Below, one piece after another: positions 2,120-42,453 of a DNA stretch of 55,444 bases. How positions within the stretch are numbered: position 1 is the first letter of the stretch; each line of letters starts with the position of its first letter. A program made the translations under genes and the position numbers. The notes under the pieces were generated by a model. It was not told the origin of the DNA. It was given only the letters and a program-made list of their open reading frames with translations, and searched no databases. Source of the stretch: an uncultured Gammaproteobacteria bacterium (GTDB lineage: Bacteria > Patescibacteriota > Microgenomatia > UBA8517); assembly GCA_964429215.1 (NCBI GenBank), contig CAYSAY010000006.1:1-55444 (forward strand). Direction: 5' to 3'.

Positions 2120-3288
2120 AACAAAAAATTGCATGGTTACATCCACACTTTTTATATTGGACAGGTGGTACAAAATATATATTGGCCGTTGTACAAGAAT
2201 TGTCTAAAAAATATGAAATTACAATTTTTACTGAAGGGTATAGCGATGAGATTAAAAAAGATTTTGATAAGTTAAATATCAAGGTTGTTAAAATATCTAA
2301 TTTTTCTACTAATAAATTAATTTATTGGGTGTTTTTACCAATTATTTTAATATCAGAGCTAATAATCTTAAGAAAGAGATTGCCTAAATTTTACAGAATT
2401 GTTTCTAGTATGTTTCCAATGAATATCGTTGCCAATATACTAAGTCGTAAAAACCATGTCCAATTCGTTTTTGAACCGTTTGCTTTTTTTCACGATAAAA
2501 AAATGATTGGTGGATATCCATTTATCGTACGTAACTTAATGCAAATTGCTCGTTTATTGTATTGTTGGCTAGATACCTATTTTACAAAATCGTCCAAAGT
2601 TTTGATGACAGTCAACAATGGTGTATCAAAATGGATTATGAAAGTTTATCGACGGAAATCAATACCTGCGTATTTAATAGTAGATACTAAAAAGTTTAAG
2701 AAAATTACGAGTAGTCGGTTTGATAAGTTATTCACTGATAAATTACTTGTGCTGCATAGTACTGATTTAACGCCCTTAAAAAGGACACCCTTTGTAATTA
2801 GTGGTTTTAAGGATGTGGTTAAACAGGTTCCAAATGCCTTATTACTTATAACAACACCATTTGATGTATCAAATAAATCTAAACAGATTACTGATTATGC
2901 GGAAAAATATGGTATTTCTAAAAATGTTGTAGTATTGGGATTTGTAAAAAATAAAGATTTGGCATCATTGTATTCAAGAGTTGATTGTGCTGTTTATGCT
3001 GGAGTAGGAGATGGTGCAAGCGCCTGTAGTTATTTTGTTTTGGAAGTAATGTCGTCTCAAACACCAGTTGTGCGAACTTCTGATTCTGTGGAAGAGGTTG
3101 AGGAGAATAAGTCAGGATATTTATTCAAACCTGAAGATAAAGAAAAGATGGTAAGTTCCATTGTTAAGCTTCTAAAAGATAAAAAATTGTCATTAAAGAT
3201 GGGTGTTGCGGCTAGAAATAGAATTAAAAATGTATATACCAATGAAGTTGTTGCTAAAAGTTTTAAAGATGCATTTGAACAAATATAA
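2116..3288 (+). CDS. GT-B fold glycosyltransferase (family 4-like)
   Basis: 390 aa. C-terminal domain has a GT4-type E-x7-E region (SYFVLEVMSSQTPVV...SGYLF). Typical length. Confidence 0.8.
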   Translation: MKQKIAWLHPHFLYWTGGTKYILAVVQELSKKYEITIFTEGYSDEIKKDFDKLNIKVVKISNFSTNKLIYWVFLPIILISELIILRKRLPKFYRIVSSMFPMNIVANILSRKNHVQFVFEPFAFFHDKKMIGGYPFIVRNLMQIARLLYCWLDTYFTKSSKVLMTVNNGVSKWIMKVYRRKSIPAYLIVDTKKFKKITSSRFDKLFTDKLLVLHSTDLTPLKRTPFVISGFKDVVKQVPNALLLITTPFDVSNKSKQITDYAEKYGISKNVVVLGFVKNKDLASLYSRVDCAVYAGVGDGASACSYFVLEVMSSQTPVVRTSDSVEEVEENKSGYLFKPEDKEKMVSSIVKLLKDKKLSLKMGVAARNRIKNVYTNEVVAKSFKDAFEQI

Positions 3289-3302
3289 TCGAATAAATTG
3301 TT

Positions 3303-3713
3303 ATGCTTGAAAAAATAATTATAGATAATAGACTAGTTGCATTAATTATGCGGTCAACTGCGGAGGTTACATCTTCAACTTTTTTCTCTCCACCGGAGTT
3401 AAATTTTCAGATGTCAATCTTTAAAAGGGAGAAAGATTTTGTGGAGAAACCACATTTTCATAAAAAGGTAATTAGAAAAATTGATAGGGTGGAACAATTT
3501 TTATATATATTAGAAGGTCAAATGCGCGTTGATTTTTTTGATAAAAAGGGTATATTAACAAAGACAAAGCGAATAAAAAAAGGTGACAGTATTCTGATAA
3601 TTAGGGGAATACATGGAATAAAAATGATTAGTAATTGTAAAGCAATATCAATTAAACAAGGTCCTTTTTTAGGCGATTTGAATGACAAAATAGAAGTAAA
3701 AACATACAAATGA
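3303..3713 (+). CDS. small cupin-fold protein (WbuC/WxcM-like sugar-nucleotide-associated cupin)
   Basis: 136 aa. PHFHKK...EQFLYILEGQMRVDFFDKKG pattern resembles a cupin metal-site and beta-barrel signature. ATGA-coupled to the downstream sugar aminotransferase. Confidence 0.5.
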   Translation: MLEKIIIDNRLVALIMRSTAEVTSSTFFSPPELNFQMSIFKREKDFVEKPHFHKKVIRKIDRVEQFLYILEGQMRVDFFDKKGILTKTKRIKKGDSILIIRGIHGIKMISNCKAISIKQGPFLGDLNDKIEVKTYK

Positions 3714-4823: not shown

Positions 4824-5534
4824 ATGGTTAATAAAAGTGATTTTCATGGAATTCCATATATAAATAAAAAGCGAAAGTCACCACACGGATTTCTAGTCGG
4901 TTATATTTATAAAATATTTCAAAAGCATTCAGTTTTACCCGATGATGTTGTCATCCGGGACATGCGAAAAGGAGCAAATTTATTGGATATGGGTTGTGGT
5001 GATGGTGATTTTTGTTTTAAAAACGACTTTAATTTTGATAAAATTATTGGAATTGACGTTTCTGATTTTAGGATTAGGAATGCAATCAAGAAAAGTTTAA
5101 AATTGAACCATAAAAAATATATTTTTCAAACTGGCGATATGGATAGTAAATTGCCATTTAGGTCCGGTTATTTTGACACAATCGTAATGATAGCCGCATT
5201 TCAATATTGTTTTGATCCTTATTTTACCCTGCGAGAATTGAATCGAGTTTTAAAAAAGGGTGGGGTAATGTATATCCAAGTGACTAATCTTGCGTGGATC
5301 GTGTATCGTATACAACTTTTATTTGGAAAACAACTTTTTACATCATTGGCACATTTTCAAACCTGGGATGGAGGTATTTTGCATTACTTCACTTTTAAGT
5401 CGCTTTCAGACTTGATTAATAAATGTGGCTTTAAAGTAACCTATAAATCTTGTTCGGGATTATTTAGAAATATTAAACTGATCTATCCATCGTTATTAGC
5501 TAGTGATATTATAATAAAAGCAATCAAAAAATGA
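4824..5534 (+). CDS. class I SAM-dependent methyltransferase
   Basis: Motif I LLDMGCGDGDF; downstream FDTIVMIAAFQY and LKKGGVMYI, typical of the Methyltransf_11/23 fold. Confidence 0.75.
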   Translation: MVNKSDFHGIPYINKKRKSPHGFLVGYIYKIFQKHSVLPDDVVIRDMRKGANLLDMGCGDGDFCFKNDFNFDKIIGIDVSDFRIRNAIKKSLKLNHKKYIFQTGDMDSKLPFRSGYFDTIVMIAAFQYCFDPYFTLRELNRVLKKGGVMYIQVTNLAWIVYRIQLLFGKQLFTSLAHFQTWDGGILHYFTFKSLSDLINKCGFKVTYKSCSGLFRNIKLIYPSLLASDIIIKAIKK

Positions 5535-6367
5535 AAAACTGGTATTATTTTTACAAATATAGTATTTTACTTGGAATTAGATTTTTTCTAAAAGGTAATT
5601 TTAAATTTAGCAAAGAAGCGTTAAAAAGAATTATTATACCAATGGATATTGCAAGGTATTTTGAAATTCCAGCTACTTTCCGGTATTTAGATGCAAAGGC
5701 TAACGAAAAAATTTTAGATATTTCAAGTCCGAAATTAATTAGTTTTTACATTTCTGAAAAAATAAAGTCTGTTGTATATGGTACAGATGTTTGGAACAAA
5801 GAGATTATAGAGTGGAAAAAAATAAAATCTAACGTAATTTTTAATAGAAATTTAACTAGAAATTTAAAATTAAATACAGTTGATGGTAGAAAACTACCAT
5901 ATAAAAAGAATTTTTTTGATAAGATATTTAGTGTTTCTGTGATTGAGCACATAGAGAAGAATGGTGATACTGCATGTATCAGAGAGCTGGCTAGGGTTTT
6001 GAAACCTGGTGGTAAAATTGTCATTACTACGCCTTTTGGTAGTGAATATAAAGAAAATTGGGTTTCAAGAGATGCGTATGGTAATAAATTTGATGGGGAT
6101 AAACCAGTTTTTTTATCTAGAATTTATGATAAAAAGAATTTAAAAACACGCTTAATTGATCCTTCAGGGTTAAAACTTGAATCGAGAATCATATGTAATG
6201 AAAGATTCCCAATAATAACTACTATTTACACGCATACTCTTCCATTATCGCCACTGTTTGGGCTAATATTTCCACTTTTAGCTAAATTGACACTTCATGA
6301 AGGTCAATATGTTGGAGATAAAAATAATATATTGATTGTATTAAGAAAAGATGCAGATAAAGCGTAA
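5531..6367 (+). CDS. probable SAM-dependent methyltransferase
   Basis: ILDISSPKL (degenerate motif I), FDKIFSVSVIEHI, LKPGGKIVITTP. ATGA overlap with the upstream methyltransferase. Confidence 0.6.
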   Translation: MKNWYYFYKYSILLGIRFFLKGNFKFSKEALKRIIIPMDIARYFEIPATFRYLDAKANEKILDISSPKLISFYISEKIKSVVYGTDVWNKEIIEWKKIKSNVIFNRNLTRNLKLNTVDGRKLPYKKNFFDKIFSVSVIEHIEKNGDTACIRELARVLKPGGKIVITTPFGSEYKENWVSRDAYGNKFDGDKPVFLSRIYDKKNLKTRLIDPSGLKLESRIICNERFPIITTIYTHTLPLSPLFGLIFPLLAKLTLHEGQYVGDKNNILIVLRKDADKA

Positions 6368-32786: not shown

Positions 32787-33427
32787 AAAAGAAAACCTAT
32801 TTATATTCAGTTGTTTTAGTGCTTATTTTTCTAGCTACTATAATTGCTTTTTATTGGTTTTCTAAATCTCCATATTTTTTAAGTGTAGATACTTGGATTA
32901 AGGCAAATGTTGTTACTTATGTAATTTTTTTATTTTTATACAAAACTGTTGGTGTTTTATTTCCACCAATTCCTGGAGGATTAGTTACATTAGCATCTAT
33001 ACCTTTTTTGGGATGGATTAATGCTTATTTGATAGATTTTTTTGGAAGTATTTGCGGAGGAATAATTGCTTATTATTTAGCTAAGAAATATGGTCACCCA
33101 CTTTTGTTAAAAATTTTTGGAGAAGATATAGCAAGAAAGATCGAAAGTATTAAAGTAAAGAAAAATAGAGAAATTGAAGCTGTATTTACATATAGGTTGG
33201 CATTGGGAAGTACAATTCTTGAGGCTGTTTACTATGGAGCAGGTTTTTTAAAAATTGGGTTTAGAAATTTTTTGATCGGGAGTATTATCTCACATACACT
33301 GGTCGGAGTTCCTACCTTTTTTCTTGCCAGTAATATATTAAATGGTGAAAATATAATATTGACTGTGCTAATTACTATAGTTGGAATTGTTTTTGTCTTA
33401 TTTACAAAAGGGAGATATTTTGAATGA
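32783..33427 (+). CDS. DedA/TVP38-TMEM64 (VTT/SNARE-associated domain) family membrane protein
   Basis: 214 aa with 5-6 hydrophobic segments. VGVLFPPIPGG motif typical of the VTT domain. Confidence 0.6.
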   Translation: MKKKTYLYSVVLVLIFLATIIAFYWFSKSPYFLSVDTWIKANVVTYVIFLFLYKTVGVLFPPIPGGLVTLASIPFLGWINAYLIDFFGSICGGIIAYYLAKKYGHPLLLKIFGEDIARKIESIKVKKNREIEAVFTYRLALGSTILEAVYYGAGFLKIGFRNFLIGSIISHTLVGVPTFFLASNILNGENIILTVLITIVGIVFVLFTKGRYFE

Positions 33428-34590
33428 TTGAAACAGAGCTTGATAATCTTAAAATTGCAATTGTATATGATAGGGTAAATAAATTTGGTGGGGCGGAGAG
33501 AGTTCTTATGGCGCTTCATGAAATGTTTCCTGATGCACCACTTTACACTTCTGTATATGACAAAGAAAATGCTCCCTGGGCAAAGAATTTTCCTAGTGTG
33601 CATACTTCTTTTCTACAAAAAATTCCTATTTTAAGAAATTACCATGAATTAATGGGCTGGCTTATGCCATTAGCATTTGAACAATTCGATTTTAATGAAT
33701 ATGATGTTGTAATTTCAGTTACTTCAGAAGCGGCAAAAGGAATTATTACAAATTCCAACACTTTCCACTATTGTTATATATTAACTCCAACTAGATATCT
33801 TTGGAGTGGAAGAGATTTTTATTTAAATAATCCACCAAAAATATTTAAGATTTTCCCTTTCTATAAATATATTTCTTGGCCATTTCTTACTTATGTCAAA
33901 TGGTGGGATAAAGTGGCAAGCCAAAGGCCTGACAAAATTATTTCAATTTCAACCGAAGTACAAAAAAGAATTAAAAAATATTACGATCGAGATTCTGAAA
34001 TTATATTTCCTCCAGTTATTACGCCAGAAGTAGCATTAGTAAAACATCCAAAGGATGGTACATATTACTTTATTCATGGACGATTTGAACCATATAAAAG
34101 ACTTGATTTAATAATTGATACGTTTATTAATTTAGACTATCAGCTTGTAGTATCAGGAAGTGGTTCAGAATTTAATAAATACAAAGATAATAATTACAAA
34201 AATATAAAATTTATCGAAAAACCTTCAGACGCTGAATTATCAGATTTATATTTAAACGCAAAGGCATTTTTAATGCCACAAGATGAAGACTTTGGAATTA
34301 CATCAGTTGAAGCGCAAAGTTATGGTGTCCCTGTTATTGCTTTTCGAAGTGGTGGAGCGCTTGATACGGTAATTGAAAATAAAACTGGAGTTTTCTTTGA
34401 TAGGCAAAAAGTTGGTGATTTAAAGCAAGCAATTGCAAAATTTGATACAATGAGTTTTAATAGAGAGAACTTAATCAAAAATGCTGAAAAATTTAGCAAA
34501 GACCGATTCAAAAGAGAATTACAAAGATCACTTGTACGCTCTTATTCTAGCTGGAGGAGGGGGAACACGACTTTGGCCAAAATCACTTGA
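33424..34590 (+). CDS. GT-B fold glycosyltransferase (family 4)
   Basis: 388 aa. KIAIVYDRVNKFGGAERVL N-terminus; MPQDEDFGITSVEAQSYGVPVIAFRSGGALDTV..TGVFF. The last 30 or so codons overlap the next gene. Confidence 0.8.
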   Translation: MIETELDNLKIAIVYDRVNKFGGAERVLMALHEMFPDAPLYTSVYDKENAPWAKNFPSVHTSFLQKIPILRNYHELMGWLMPLAFEQFDFNEYDVVISVTSEAAKGIITNSNTFHYCYILTPTRYLWSGRDFYLNNPPKIFKIFPFYKYISWPFLTYVKWWDKVASQRPDKIISISTEVQKRIKKYYDRDSEIIFPPVITPEVALVKHPKDGTYYFIHGRFEPYKRLDLIIDTFINLDYQLVVSGSGSEFNKYKDNNYKNIKFIEKPSDAELSDLYLNAKAFLMPQDEDFGITSVEAQSYGVPVIAFRSGGALDTVIENKTGVFFDRQKVGDLKQAIAKFDTMSFNRENLIKNAEKFSKDRFKRELQRSLVRSYSSWRRGNTTLAKIT

Positions 34591-39225: not shown

Positions 39226-40584
39226 ATGGACTTGAAAGATAAAATTGCATCACTTGCTAAAAGACGCGGTTTTGTTTTCCCTTCTTCAGAAATATATGGT
39301 GGAATGGCTAATACTTGGGATTTTGGACCAATGGGTACACTTCTTAAAAATAACATTCGTGACTTATGGGTTAAAACGTTTGTAACTGACAAAGATAACA
39401 TGGTGATGATTGACGCTGCCTCAATTCTTCGACCTGAAGTATGGGGTGCATCGGGGCACTTGGCAGGGTTTAACGAAGCGCTCATAGACTGCAAAGAGTG
39501 TAAAAATAGAGCCAGGGCAGATCATTTAGTAGAGAATACTGAACTTGGTATTATGGTTGAAGGACTTTCTTTTGAGGAGCTAGAAAAAATTGTAACCGAT
39601 AACAAAATAAAATGCCCTAAGTGTGGAAAATTTAATTGGACAGCAATCAGAAAGTTTAATCAACTTGTTGAAGTTAAACTTGGTGTTTTGGAAGAGGGTA
39701 AAAACTTGGCTTATCTAAGAGGAGAAATAGCTCAAGGTATATTTTTAAATTTTAAAAACGTAATTGATTCAACTCGCGTTAAAGTTCCTTTTGGTATAGC
39801 ACAAGTAGGTAAAGCTTATAGAAATGAGATAACCATGGGACAGTTTGTTCATAGAAGTTTTGAGTTTGATTTAATGGAGTTTGAATATTTTATCAAAGAT
39901 GAAAACTGGAATGAAGTATTTGATTTGTTTAGCAAAGAAATGTGGCGGTTTGCACTTGATTTGGGATTAAATGAGAAAAAGTTAAGATGGAGAGAACACG
40001 AAGAAACTGAAAGATCTCATTATTCTAAAAAAACTGCTGATATTGAATATGAATATCCATACGGTTTTAAAGAAATGTTTGGTATTGCTTATAGAACTAA
40101 TTTTGATCTTACTAATCATGCTACTAATTCAGGAAAGGACTTAAGTTTTGTTGATCCTCAAACAAATGAAAAATATGTACCTCATGTAATTGAACCAACC
40201 TTTGGATTATCAAGACTTACAGGTATTACTCTTTTTGATGCATATACAGAAGATGGTGATAGAGTTTATCTAAAACTTAATCCTAAAATTGCACCTTATA
40301 AAGTTGCTGTCTTCCCACTTCTTGGAAATAAACCTGAATTAACTAAAAAGGCGAGGGAAGTTTATTCTGAACTTAAGAAAACTTTAAATGTAACCTGGGA
40401 TGATAGAGGAAATATTGGAAAGCGTTATTTTGCACAAGATGAAATTGGTACTCCTTGGTGTGTTACAGTTGATTTTGATACTGAAAAAGACAATTCAGTA
40501 ACAGTTCGTGATCGTGATACAGGTAAACAAGAAAGAATAGAAATTTCAATGCTTCAAGAATATTTTAGTGAAAAGTTAAAATAA
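39226..40584 (+). CDS. glyQS: glycine--tRNA ligase (class II, homodimeric GlyQS type)
   Basis: 452 aa. KRRGFVFPSSEIYGG..NTWDFGPMG; RPETAQG-like LRGEIAQGIF; GKAYRNEI; EPTFGLSRL; RYFAQDEIGTPWCVTVD. Confidence 0.95.
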   Translation: MDLKDKIASLAKRRGFVFPSSEIYGGMANTWDFGPMGTLLKNNIRDLWVKTFVTDKDNMVMIDAASILRPEVWGASGHLAGFNEALIDCKECKNRARADHLVENTELGIMVEGLSFEELEKIVTDNKIKCPKCGKFNWTAIRKFNQLVEVKLGVLEEGKNLAYLRGEIAQGIFLNFKNVIDSTRVKVPFGIAQVGKAYRNEITMGQFVHRSFEFDLMEFEYFIKDENWNEVFDLFSKEMWRFALDLGLNEKKLRWREHEETERSHYSKKTADIEYEYPYGFKEMFGIAYRTNFDLTNHATNSGKDLSFVDPQTNEKYVPHVIEPTFGLSRLTGITLFDAYTEDGDRVYLKLNPKIAPYKVAVFPLLGNKPELTKKAREVYSELKKTLNVTWDDRGNIGKRYFAQDEIGTPWCVTVDFDTEKDNSVTVRDRDTGKQERIEISMLQEYFSEKLK

Positions 40585-40955
40585 TGAAAATTATTAAAAA
40601 AACTGAAGCGATTCATGTAGATAAACCTGAAGGGACAAAAGTAGATTATTATCTTCGCGATGAGTATGAGGTTCATTACAATGAACAGTTTGCAGGTTCA
40701 ACCCAAACGTGGCATCATCATGAAAAAATTTCAGAAACATTATTTATAATTGAGGGTGAATTGACGGCTAAGTGGAAAGAAAATGATGTAGAAAAAACTC
40801 AAATTGTTTCAACTGGAGATCTTATTGAATCAGAAAATACTTCACATACTTTTGTTAATCATACAGATAAAATCGTTAAATTTATAGTTATTAAACAAGT
40901 TTTAACAGGAGAAAATAAAGTCGATCTGCTTAAAAACGATAAAGTGATTGATTAA
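40584..40955 (+). CDS. cupin-domain protein
   Basis: 123 aa. TWHHHEKISETLFIIEGEL (HxH..E) and GDLIESENTSHTFVN. TAATG 1-nt overlap with glyQS. Confidence 0.7.
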   Translation: MKIIKKTEAIHVDKPEGTKVDYYLRDEYEVHYNEQFAGSTQTWHHHEKISETLFIIEGELTAKWKENDVEKTQIVSTGDLIESENTSHTFVNHTDKIVKFIVIKQVLTGENKVDLLKNDKVID

Positions 40956-40957
40956 CC

Positions 40958-40994
40958 ATACCGAGGTGGCAATAGTAATCCACTCCCGAAGTGG
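40958..40994. repeat. 37-nt repeat copy 1 (ATACCGAGGTGGCAATAGTAATCCACTCCCGAAGTGG) with an internal hairpin
   Basis: Identical to 41680..41716, same orientation. CCACT / AGTGG 5-bp stem with CCCGA loop. Alternative pairing GGTGG / CCACT. Confidence 0.9.
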
Positions 40995-40997
40995 AAT

Positions 40998-41669
40998 TTA
41001 ATCAAAAGTTAGATGCTTTATATTTTCCAATTCTTTTTGATAATCAGCGTTATCTGTAACAAAGTTTTTGTATGAGTCGTCGGTTTTAAAACTACTCAAT
41101 ATATCGTCTTTTATACAAAATGGAAATTTAGTTTGATTTAAATATTCTGGAAGTGAGGACCATTCGTATTTTATCAGTTTGTCAATATCTGCAACTATTG
41201 CAGATGAATAAGGATTCAAATGTATATATCTTGAAACATGCAACAATTGTTCTTCACTGTCAATTCTAACAGCTTTAAATTGGCCTTGAAATAAAGGCCC
41301 TACTCTTTCATTTTTAATATTAAAATACCGCACATGGCTATTTTGTAAGTTAGCTAATAATTTTGAAATCCCATTGTCATTATTTTGTTTTAACAGCAAA
41401 TGAAAATGATTTGGCATCAAGCAATACGAAATAATATCAGTATTGGTTTTTTCCTTTGCTAATCTACTCCATATTTCTTGCCTTTGATCACCAGCAAGCG
41501 TCATGAATTTTGAAAATTTAACAGGGTGATCAAGATAATTGTAGTATTTTAGTAGTAATAAAAAACGACGGTATTCATATTTAGATTTAAAAATTGGTCG
41601 TTTATTAACACCGCGATTAAATATATGGTAGTAATAATTAGTTATTAATGGTGTCTGACGTGCTGGCAT
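40998..41669 (-). CDS. HUH-Y1 (IS200-like / REP-associated tyrosine transposase, COG1943-type) transposase
   Basis: 223 aa. YYHIFNRGVNKRPIF N-terminus; HUH motif MPNHFHLLL; catalytic-Tyr region VSRYIHLNPYSSAIV. Confidence 0.8.
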   Translation of the reverse strand: MPARQTPLITNYYYHIFNRGVNKRPIFKSKYEYRRFLLLLKYYNYLDHPVKFSKFMTLAGDQRQEIWSRLAKEKTNTDIISYCLMPNHFHLLLKQNNDNGISKLLANLQNSHVRYFNIKNERVGPLFQGQFKAVRIDSEEQLLHVSRYIHLNPYSSAIVADIDKLIKYEWSSLPEYLNQTKFPFCIKDDILSSFKTDDSYKNFVTDNADYQKELENIKHLTFD

Positions 41670-41679
41670 ATTTCATTGT

Positions 41680-41716
41680 ATACCGAGGTGGCAATAGTAA
41701 TCCACTCCCGAAGTGG
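41680..41716. repeat. 37-nt repeat copy 2
   Basis: Perfect match to 40958..40994 in direct orientation. Its first base abuts the TACAAT -10-like box of the transposase gene (minus strand, 41680..41675). Confidence 0.9.
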
Positions 41717-41724
41717 GATGCTAG

Positions 41725-42453
41725 TTGACAACTAACCTATTTAAATTGCAAAATGATAATATGAATTTAACTTCAAGTAGTAAAAAATATTTTCCATTTA
41801 TACTTTTAGGTGTTGGAATACTTATATTGGTTTTTGTATTTATATTTATTAAAAATAGAAATTCAGATGTTGTGGTTGACGACACAGAAACTCTTGCTGA
41901 AGTTGCATTTAAAGATAGACCATTTGCATCATTGACTCCTACATCTGACGGACATTATATAAATTTAAAAATAGATAAAATAACTTTACCTAAGGCAGTT
42001 TCACTTGATTATGAATTACTCTACTCACTTCCTGATGGTAGAACCCAAGGAGTTCCTGGAACAGTTGATTTGAAAGGTGAGAAATCATTTGAAAGAAAGT
42101 TGCTATTGGGATCTGAATCAAATGGAAAATTTAGATATGATGAAGGTGTTGTTGATGGAAGTTTAACCGTTAGACTTCGAAACTCAAATGGAAAGTTAAT
42201 GGTAAAGTTTTCTACAAAGTGGCATTTGCAATCAACAGATCAGGAATTAACATCTATTGATCAAAACTTCACATATGTAATGGATAAGAAACCAAAAGGG
42301 ATGTACTTTGTAACAATGGAAACATTTGGATTAATGGATAGCACTGTTTCCGAAGTAGCCTCAGGTCCATATGGAATATTTGCTTCAGAAGAATTACCTG
42401 CTGGAACAGCAGAAGGGTGGAAAGTCGTTTCTTCAAATATCTTCTTCAAATAA
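41725..42453 (+). CDS. hypothetical membrane-anchored protein (start uncertain: TTG 41725 or ATG 41761)
   Basis: 242 aa. One N-terminal TM helix (YFPFILLGVGILILVFVFIFI) followed by a probably beta-rich soluble domain. No recognisable motif. Confidence 0.45.
   Translation: MTTNLFKLQNDNMNLTSSSKKYFPFILLGVGILILVFVFIFIKNRNSDVVVDDTETLAEVAFKDRPFASLTPTSDGHYINLKIDKITLPKAVSLDYELLYSLPDGRTQGVPGTVDLKGEKSFERKLLLGSESNGKFRYDEGVVDGSLTVRLRNSNGKLMVKFSTKWHLQSTDQELTSIDQNFTYVMDKKPKGMYFVTMETFGLMDSTVSEVASGPYGIFASEELPAGTAEGWKVVSSNIFFK

Follow-up and report, generated by a model that had tools for sequence, protein, structure and literature searches.

The question raised by this locus is whether a gene for a Y1 nuclease of the HUH type that lies exactly between two identical 37-nt direct repeats is an insertion sequence or a resident gene accompanied by repeats of its own. 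The locus is contained in a stretch of 55,444 nucleotides from a Woesebacteria-type (Patescibacteria) genome (contig CAYSAY010000006.1 of assembly GCA_964429215.1), which is referred to here as the window. It is best explained, with a probability that we put somewhat above even, as a chromosomally fixed gene of the RAYT/TnpA-Y1 class-2 type together with two copies of a cognate element of about 40 nt, an arrangement similar to a REPtron or TIRtron, named after repetitive extragenic palindromes (REPs) and terminal inverted repeats (TIRs), respectively.

Two exact copies of the repeat, ATACCGAGGTGGCAATAGTAATCCACTCCCGAAGTGG, with 0 mismatches and in the same orientation, are located at 40958-40994 and 41680-41716, as had been reported in an earlier interpretation of the letters alone (the sequence-only reading), and no such pair is expected by chance (100 shuffles). 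If one mismatch is allowed, the repetition covers 40 nt (40958-40997 and 41680-41719), and no third copy of the 37-mer was detected in the window with up to 3 mismatches, by half-motif searches or by an nhmmer profile of the element. Both copies are genuine, because the 37-mer forms a unitig of its own with a depth of 31, about twice that of its flanks (12.5, 14.4 and 17.5; Logan unitigs from two public runs), and because the same repeat-gene-repeat layout is shown by independent assemblies of relatives from several studies. An assembly artefact or a chance duplication, in favor of which it can be said only that such a repeat breaks k-mer graphs, is left with practically no probability by these data and by the chance expectation of zero copies. 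The window contains no tRNA or tmRNA genes, and the 3' end of such a gene was therefore rejected as the source of the repeat; likewise, no match to a known RNA family was obtained from Rfam across 40400-42300 at E <= 1.

Also in line with the sequence-only reading, the two copies exactly flank a minus-strand open reading frame (ORF) of 223 aa with the motifs PNHFHLLL and RYIHLNP, and the hexamer TACAAT adjoins the right repeat, overlapping the first base of the upstream copy at a distance of 5 nt ahead of the ATG. The two hairpins that had been proposed fared less evenly: the CCACT/AGTGG hairpin exists but is weak when folded alone (-3.9 kcal/mol, z = -1.3), and the alternative pairing, GGTGG-N10-CCACT, amounts to 4 bp and one G.T pair. 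In gene orientation, the upstream copy reads ATCCCAC-TTCGGGA-GTGG-AT, followed by TACTA, the box TTGCCACCTCGG and TAT, while the downstream copy fills the gap between the stop codons of Y1 and the convergent cupin gene except for 3 nt on the cupin side.

The 223-aa protein is matched by the Pfam family Y1_Tnp (E = 8e-10) and by the RAYT equivalog of NCBIfam, REP_Tyr_transpos, the latter with 49 bits and thus under its cutoff of 80. Approximately 7,300 database proteins match it at E <= 1e-5, and the best 120 homologues are almost all 222-225 aa in length, the named ones belonging to Patescibacteria/Woesebacteria; a look-up of the exact window protein returned no database record. Across 50 aligned homologues with 50-100% identity, residues H88, H90, Y148, N152 and P153 do not vary. 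Because a single-sequence search of the PDB returned only noise and a profile search only weak matches to ISDra2 TnpA (E = 0.004) and 4ER8 (E = 0.13), fold comparison was needed to place the protein. The AlphaFold (AF2) model (pLDDT 89.9, pTM 0.87) has its best PDB match in 4ER8, the E. coli TnpA-REP bound to a REP hairpin (E = 6.7e-7, target TM 0.70), and its next matches in ISDra2 and IS608 TnpA. Beyond Y1_Tnp, the C-terminus has no Pfam match at E <= 0.01, with short helices modeled by AF2 in residues 162-213, and no tnpB is found adjacent to the gene among the window ORFs. Compared by inspection rather than with the hidden Markov models (HMMs) of its authors, the combination of NHFH, FQ and YIHLNP is the signature of subclass 2.1 (Table 1 of Quentin et al. 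2018, PMC6006769). By sequence and predicted fold, the protein resembles the RAYT/TnpA-Y1 class-2 type, with a signature most like that of subclass 2.1, the 'TIRYT' group.

The residence time of the gene can be judged from its neighborhood in relatives, whose loci are designated here by L numbers. Orthologues with 78-84% identity share the neighborhood MraZ-RsmH, divergent 225-228-aa protein, Y1, cupin/GlyRS and RecO, and the order MraZ, 227-aa protein, Y1 and GlyRS is also kept at 74-76%, 68% and 60-61% Y1 identity. The same gene and flanking element occupy the same locus even where the neighbor proteins are only 47-60% identical, which speaks against the suggestion of the sequence-only reading that this might be a very young or minimal element. 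Y1, present once in the window, is usually more conserved than its neighbors, as in the comparison with L017, where Y1 is 76% but the 227-aa protein 51% identical. Because the gene has kept its place in relatives with as little as 60% Y1 identity, it is not a young insertion; on these comparative grounds, it is fixed, long-resident and vertically inherited. Another of the earlier suggestions, a domesticated RAYT with its own REP-like sequence, has proved apt, in that the gene is syntenic and single-copy and the 37-mer belongs to a dispersed repeat family.

The nearest relative by neighboring genes is L074 (GlyRS 91% and MraZ 79% identical), and its Y1 (3001-3672) is only 68% identical and flanked by another hairpin type, TACACC-TCGGG-GGTGTA, in direct orientation on both sides. 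Since the neighbors are alike but Y1 and the hairpin are both divergent, protein and hairpin appear to have changed together, which suggests either replacement of the Y1 allele or its rapid co-evolution with the hairpin. The nucleotide identity between the window and L074 dips broadly in the 5' half of Y1 and also at the downstream element, and sharp cassette boundaries between the two were rejected on account of this lack of clean edges. The genome of L074 additionally harbors a 37% Y1 paralogue (L009 4075-4743) with unrelated repeats of its own, AAGGTTTGACCTT direct and TACCTTTA inverted; several Y1 genes, each accompanied by its own repeats, can thus coexist in one genome. A 55% Y1 orthologue is located between LemA/SET and M48 peptidase in L072 (3001-3672), and a solo element lies at the LemA-M48 intergenic site in L019, L022, L051 and L066, in the orientation opposite to that expected from L072.

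Lineage-specific hairpins are found on both sides of Y1 in all 15 distinct orthologue lineages (to 52% identity) and in the 37% paralogue. The upstream layout of every orthologue examined consists of the hairpin, a short spacer (mostly TACTA) and a TTGACAC(C/A)TCGG box. This box is separated from a -10-like hexamer by 17 nt in most lineages outside the window clade (18 nt fits better in L072), and the hexamer precedes the ATG by 5 nt in most orthologues, L070, L071 and L072 excepted; in the window clade, the promoter layout is shifted, the box reading TTGCCA and the -10 hexamer following only 8-9 nt later. Beside the element, a cTTGTCAA block, the -35-like hexamer of the divergent gene on the other strand, is kept in most orthologues (absent in L060, L072 and L073). 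The stems covary with the protein lineage, being of the ATCCCAC/GTGGGAT, GTACAC/GTGTAC or TACACC/GGTGTA type, with counts of C-G 9 versus A-T 8 and of T-A 11 versus C-G 4; 84% of the cells are paired versus 74% in shuffles, and the observed covariation score is reached by 0 of 500 shuffles.

Downstream of the gene, the orientation varies. Most of the 74-76% orthologues (L017, L043, L049 and L065), together with L071 and L060, have a short perfect hairpin that is an inverted copy of the upstream one, and these inverted short hairpins (19-21 nt) fold strongly (z of about -3.5 to -4). The inverted hairpin is degenerate in L033 and L045, the downstream structure of L070 is a perfect palindrome to which no orientation can be assigned, and that of L074 is direct. 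The window clade has a direct copy of the long form, complete in the window and L005 and 3'-truncated in L001 and L008. Two variable sites read T and C in both copies of the window and A and A in both copies of L005, and because the copies are thus identical within a genome but differ between these two genomes, homogenization within a genome is suggested. End hairpins of IS200/IS605 lie on one strand and the repeats flanking RAYTs are normally inverted, so the direct orientation, described as atypical in the sequence-only reading, is atypical for a RAYT but not for IS200/IS605. A target duplication of 37 bp, also proposed there, is a possible origin of the direct arrangement in view of the 18-34-nt duplications in relatives described below, but not a trace of the first arrival of the gene, because the gene already occupies this locus in older branches, where its downstream hairpin is inverted.

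The 37-mer of the window is one full unit of a dispersed element. With a search pattern in gene orientation (CCACNTCGGGAGTGNNTTACTATT), which is strict and yields copy numbers that are lower bounds, matches were obtained at 4 loci in three GTDB genomes (1-3 strict matches per genome) and at 57 metagenome loci, and none in viral contigs, for which reason a phage origin was rejected. The further copies that had been anticipated for related genomes do exist, and the relatives carry the gene with its repeats. Pattern matches, Y1 loci and the window together comprise 91 element copies in 31 flank-sequence clusters, several of which represent the same orthologous site. At positions that the pattern did not dictate, conservation sets in abruptly at -3 (ATC) and extends to about +36 (CTCGG-T/G-A-T), with unrelated flanks beyond, and positions +24 to +33, which correspond to the box, are conserved though the pattern left them free; the sharp borders therefore delimit a unit of about 40 nt. 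Its consensus is ATCCCAC-CTCGGGA-GTGG-AT, TACTA and TTG(C/A)CACCTCGG, that is, a bulged hairpin (ATCCCAC-N7-GTGG(G)AT) followed by a half-unit box that repeats the 5' arm and loop of the hairpin. The consensus has neither GGGGWSAS nor a 5' GT[AG]G at the hairpin foot, the sole complementary-strand GTGG lying 10 nt from the hairpin, and inverted doublets were not seen among the pattern loci.

Copies of the element are located immediately behind stop codons, where they may point either way with respect to the neighboring gene, as well as between the LemA and M48 peptidase genes and after an MraY-like gene. The lexA gene is bracketed by two direct full-length copies 754 nt apart in L037 (3395-3431 and 4149-4185), and also in L053, L060 and L063; the layout of these brackets is the same as that around Y1 in the window. 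A role as LexA operator, considered because two copies flank lexA in one lineage, was rejected in view of empty sites in close relatives, of copies inside ORFs and of a 71% lexA orthologue (L010 3145-3750) with the element on neither side and with a long GGTTCGGAACCCG...CGGGTTCCGAACC palindrome upstream instead. Copies inside ORFs are in frame. One of them, in the interdomain linker of a GT4 glycosyltransferase, encodes PEVAIVNHSRGG (L018 797-833 and orthologues; L057) and does not differ in DNA sequence even between proteins that share only 43% identity, and the homologous codons of the window hold a decayed remnant encoding PEVALVKHPKDG where relatives have PEVAIVNHSRGG. Another encodes SHIGSGLLLSPRD in an intact UppP/BacA (L010 651-691, GW2011_GWB1_33_38; also L044 and L059), a protein still covered end to end by the Pfam BacA profile. 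Other GC-rich hairpin families, GTACAC-ATCGGAG-GTGTAC and (T)ACCACC-TCGC-GGGTGGT(A), adjoin element copies at L037 3340-3390 and 4205-4225 and in the flanks of L049, L035, L054, L062 and L016; the former type also flanks the 64% Y1 orthologue of L060. Near ftsZ, a GC-richer stretch without ORFs, which may be a structured RNA, is located upstream of a solo element (L009 540-700).

The element behaves as mobile DNA, because both filled and empty sites, with duplications of 18 and 34 nt, occur among close relatives. In L061, 10 nt separate the stop region of lexA, AGAAGGTATACTAATTAA, from the element, and 2 nt past the element these 18 nt recur (5253-5270 and 5321-5338); the site after lexA is empty in L062 and L020, whose lexA is 96-97% identical to that of L061. 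The element of L013 is surrounded by a perfect 34-nt duplication of the 3' end of an MraY-like gene (5711-5744 and 5797-5830), and degenerate 17-nt copies of the end of this gene follow the element in L016 (1719), L067 (2276) and L052 (1835 and 1953). In L020 (10645-11252 and 11257-11318), a module of a 140-aa retropepsin-like ORF (DSGAD motif) and a 62-aa ORF lies directly after lexA and is followed by a diverged duplicate of about 41 nt of the lexA 3' end and a short element copy; this duplicate is closer to the lexA allele of other strains than to that of L020 itself. Between the MraY-like gene and the element, an extra ORF of 298 aa is present in L052 (926-1822), one of 124 aa in L067 (1706-2080) and none in L016, while the MraY-like protein is 92-96% identical among strains with differing extra ORFs, and the site resembles an element-adjacent hot spot of gene content variation.

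Around the element, host sequence is thus duplicated over 17, 18 or 34 nt, around a cargo insertion over about 41 nt (diverged), and around Y1 the duplication consists of 37 nt of the element; we know of no such footprint of long, variable-length target duplications for IS200/IS605 or REPINs. It has been considered, as a rather speculative idea, that the element marks the sites of a so far undescribed insertion reaction driven by the Y1 HUH enzyme, in which the enzyme would nick DNA at the border of the element, and strand transfer or template switching at a replication fork would then insert the element or adjacent genes and leave long variable duplications. If so, the sites after lexA and the MraY-like gene would be cassette hot spots.

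Table 1. Coordinates of the Y1 locus, its element copies and related features in the window.
Feature	Position	Strand	Basis
Y1 HUH nuclease gene, 223 aa	40998..41669	-	ORF; HUH motif NHFH (H88, H90), FQ motif PLFQGQF, Tyr motif RYIHLNP (Y148)
Upstream (5') element copy, ~40 nt	41680..41719	-	borders from 31 context clusters; upstream of every orthologue examined
Downstream (3') element copy, full length, direct	40958..40997	-	repeat search
Upstream-element hairpin CCACT TCGGG AGTGG	41702..41716	-	folding, stem covariation across orthologues, terminator-like flag
Downstream-element hairpin TCCACT TCGGG AGTGGA	40980..40995	-	folding, terminator-like flag
Box TTGCCACCTCGG in upstream copy	41683..41694	-	repeats hairpin 5' arm and loop
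Box TTGCCACCTCGG in downstream copy	40961..40972	-	repeat search
-10-like hexamer TACAAT, leaderless-type layout	41675..41680	-	pattern match only
Promoter-like site TTGACA, 18 nt, CAAAAT	41725..41754	+	faces divergent 227-aa gene 41761-42453
Decayed in-frame element remnant in GT4 gene (33424-34590)	34024..34059	-	~61% nucleotide identity, homologous codons

By analogy with TnpA-REP and IS608 TnpA, the enzyme of the fixed gene would act at replication forks, where it would bind the hairpin in single-stranded DNA and would nick and rejoin DNA at or near the element boundary, reactions by which new sites would occasionally receive a copy of the element, the gene itself remaining in place. In IS200, an upstream hairpin is situated at the 5' end of the gene and could block read-through, and the upstream hairpin considered here is likewise placed; judging from the pattern, the upstream copy, located within the putative Y1 promoter region, may insulate the gene from read-through. 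The downstream copy, placed right after the stop codon, would close the transcription unit, and its hairpin may be a terminator or a 3' end structure of the Y1 transcript. As for the direct repeat, the ancestral inverted short downstream hairpin would have been overwritten in the window clade by a direct full copy of the upstream element, probably through template switching or gene conversion that started from the 7-nt palindromic stem common to both. Such an overwrite would yield the perfect 37-nt direct repeat as a derived state of the window clade, and the same or a similar process would keep the two copies identical.

Several observations weigh against a fixed gene whose enzyme copies a cognate element. 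The copy number (2 in 55 kb and 1-3 strict matches per GTDB genome) is far under that of classical REP families, and the covariation rests on essentially two stem types and hence on few independent events. Recognition may proceed by sequence, possibly on duplex DNA, because the full-length element folds no better than shuffles (z = -0.5). In the genome of L009 and L074, a solo element of type A coexists with a syntenic Y1 whose flanking hairpins are of a different type. Finally, many copies are kept at orthologous sites over long distances, as exemplified by the GT4 copy in proteins of 43% identity, and this conservation fits a host function or continual homogenization at least as well as transposition. 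Such a host function is the core of an alternative to which we assign an appreciable but clearly minor probability, namely that the element is a host cis module (a promoter, insulator, terminator or operator of a duplex-DNA regulator) in whose spread Y1 is not involved. It would account for the TTGACA provided by the box at a conserved 17-nt spacing from the -10 hexamer upstream of Y1 in most orthologues, for the terminator-like flag of the hairpin and its T-rich tail, for copies at gene boundaries and on both sides of lexA, for their conservation at orthologous sites and for the modest folding of the long form. It does not readily account for copies in both orientations relative to neighboring genes and in frame inside ORFs, for a cognate hairpin that stands on both sides of Y1 in every lineage examined with a stem that tracks the Y1 lineage, or for insertion polymorphism with target duplication, which is the behavior of mobile DNA; moreover, a conserved unit of 40 nt far exceeds the usual length of an operator.

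The exact bracketing of the gene by direct repeats also invites the view that gene and element form a 722-nt cassette, which cleavage at the same position of both direct copies would release as a circle and which would integrate into solo elements serving as landing pads or left as scars. The occurrence of Y1 in L072 at the LemA-M48 site where other lineages hold a solo element, the incongruence of the Y1 allele and hairpin type of L074 with its neighbors, and the differing cargo genes at element-adjacent sites after lexA and the MraY-like gene in close relatives would all agree with it. It is nevertheless improbable, since the gene is found at the same locus from 60% to 100% identity, the inverted short downstream hairpin of most lineages cannot support this reaction, and the identity between the window and L074 drops without sharp edges at the elements. 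The interpretation of solo elements as scars of lost Y1 genes was rejected, given that the LemA-M48 solo element is oriented opposite to the expectation from L072 and that a 700-nt gene could not have left the in-frame copies in GT4 and UppP as its scars. An insertion sequence of the IS200/IS605 type that is active or arrived very recently would explain the Y1_Tnp domain and the same-strand hairpins at two perfectly identical ends, and is very improbable for a single-copy gene whose synteny is conserved in distant relatives, whose Tyr motif is Y---NP and not the Y---Q of IS200 transposases (PMC6006769), which has no adjacent tnpB, and whose element occurs at many sites without the gene and has no matches in viral contigs.

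The significance of the fixed gene with its cognate element lies in the copying of REP-like repeats by domesticated Y1 nucleases, a process that to our knowledge is still unexplained, and in the question of whether there are DNA partners for the large group of subclass 2.1 ('TIRYT') at all. The locus offers a small and tractable system, with tiny Patescibacteria genomes, a clearly defined cognate element and few copies, and nature has supplied variants in the form of direct versus inverted downstream copies and of stems that changed with the protein. The filled and empty sites with duplications of 18-34 nt constrain the possible copying mechanism, and the combination of a defined cognate element, orientation variants and long duplications could make REP-like copying testable. 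In terms of annotation, the 'transposase' labels on thousands of Patescibacteria proteins of about 223 aa are most likely attached to a fixed host gene and not to an insertion sequence.

Among known systems, the insertion sequences of the IS200/IS605 family (IS608, ISDra2, IS200) share with the locus the HUH/Y1 fold and same-strand hairpins at both ends. They differ in that the Y motif here has NP instead of Q, the protein is 223 aa long, and the gene is neither multicopy nor accompanied by tnpB and is syntenic over long distances; TnpA-IS200 of subclass 1.1 has a catalytic Y---Q and, with a length of about 150 aa, consists of the core alone (PMC6006769). Furthermore, the ends are identical over 37 nt here rather than distinct as left and right, and solo copies are associated with 18-34-nt duplications, unlike the insertion of IS200/IS605, which produces no target duplication.

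The canonical RAYT/REP systems (REPtrons of RAYT Groups 2-3; E. coli TnpA-REP, 4ER8; Pseudomonas REPIN-RAYT) are closer in several respects, as they provide the nearest solved fold and the Y---NP motif, and as they likewise consist of a single vertically inherited gene with cognate short palindromic repeats, in which repeat and protein change together and the repeat is dispersed, mostly by gene ends and sometimes in frame within genes. On the other hand, the present element has no GT[AG]G at the hairpin foot and forms no REPIN doublets, it is found in few copies per genome rather than in tens to hundreds, and it is a composite of hairpin and half-unit box with direct flanking copies in the window. 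Long target duplications at insertions and the score of 49 against a cutoff of 80 bits for the NCBIfam RAYT model are further differences. We found no description of a RAYT/REP-like system in Patescibacteria in the literature searched.

The closest counterpart is TnpA-Y1 subclass 2.1 (Quentin et al. 2018, PMC6006769), which equals RAYT Group 1 (Bertels et al. 2017, PMC5581495) and probably, according to Quentin et al. (PMC6006769), the 'TIRYT' proteins of Di Nocera et al. 2013 (PMC3733652). Its signature of NH[YF]H, FQ and Y[IV]HLNP (PMC6006769), a length of more than 200 aa with a C-terminal extension past the HUH core and a low gene copy number are all matched here. As in TIRYT/TIRtron systems, the flanking repeats are not GTAG REPs and belong to only moderately abundant families, and the two flanking hairpins of most relatives are inverted, as TIRs are; REPs lying in frame within genes, as well as TIR families of moderate abundance, have been described before (PMC6006769, PMC3733652). 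In contrast to TIRtrons, with their long terminal inverted repeats, many of which carry GGGGWSAS, the window has direct full-length repeats without this motif, and the C-terminal helix-turn-helix (HTH) of TIRYTs (Bac_DnaA_C, HTH_23 or HTH_28) is not detectable here by Pfam. The host is also different, being a member of the Patescibacteria, a group that is not named in the main text of PMC6006769, nor are candidate phyla, Microgenomates, Parcubacteria or Woesebacteria. Above all, no REP-like structures were reported around subclass 2.1 genes by Quentin et al. (PMC6006769), whereas, as far as comparative sequence data can tell, the subclass 2.1-like protein described here clearly has such structures, in the form of a covarying hairpin on both sides. 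The locus would thus represent a novel variant within the RAYT/TIRYT systems, with a catalytic mechanism that we infer by analogy with its characterized relatives.

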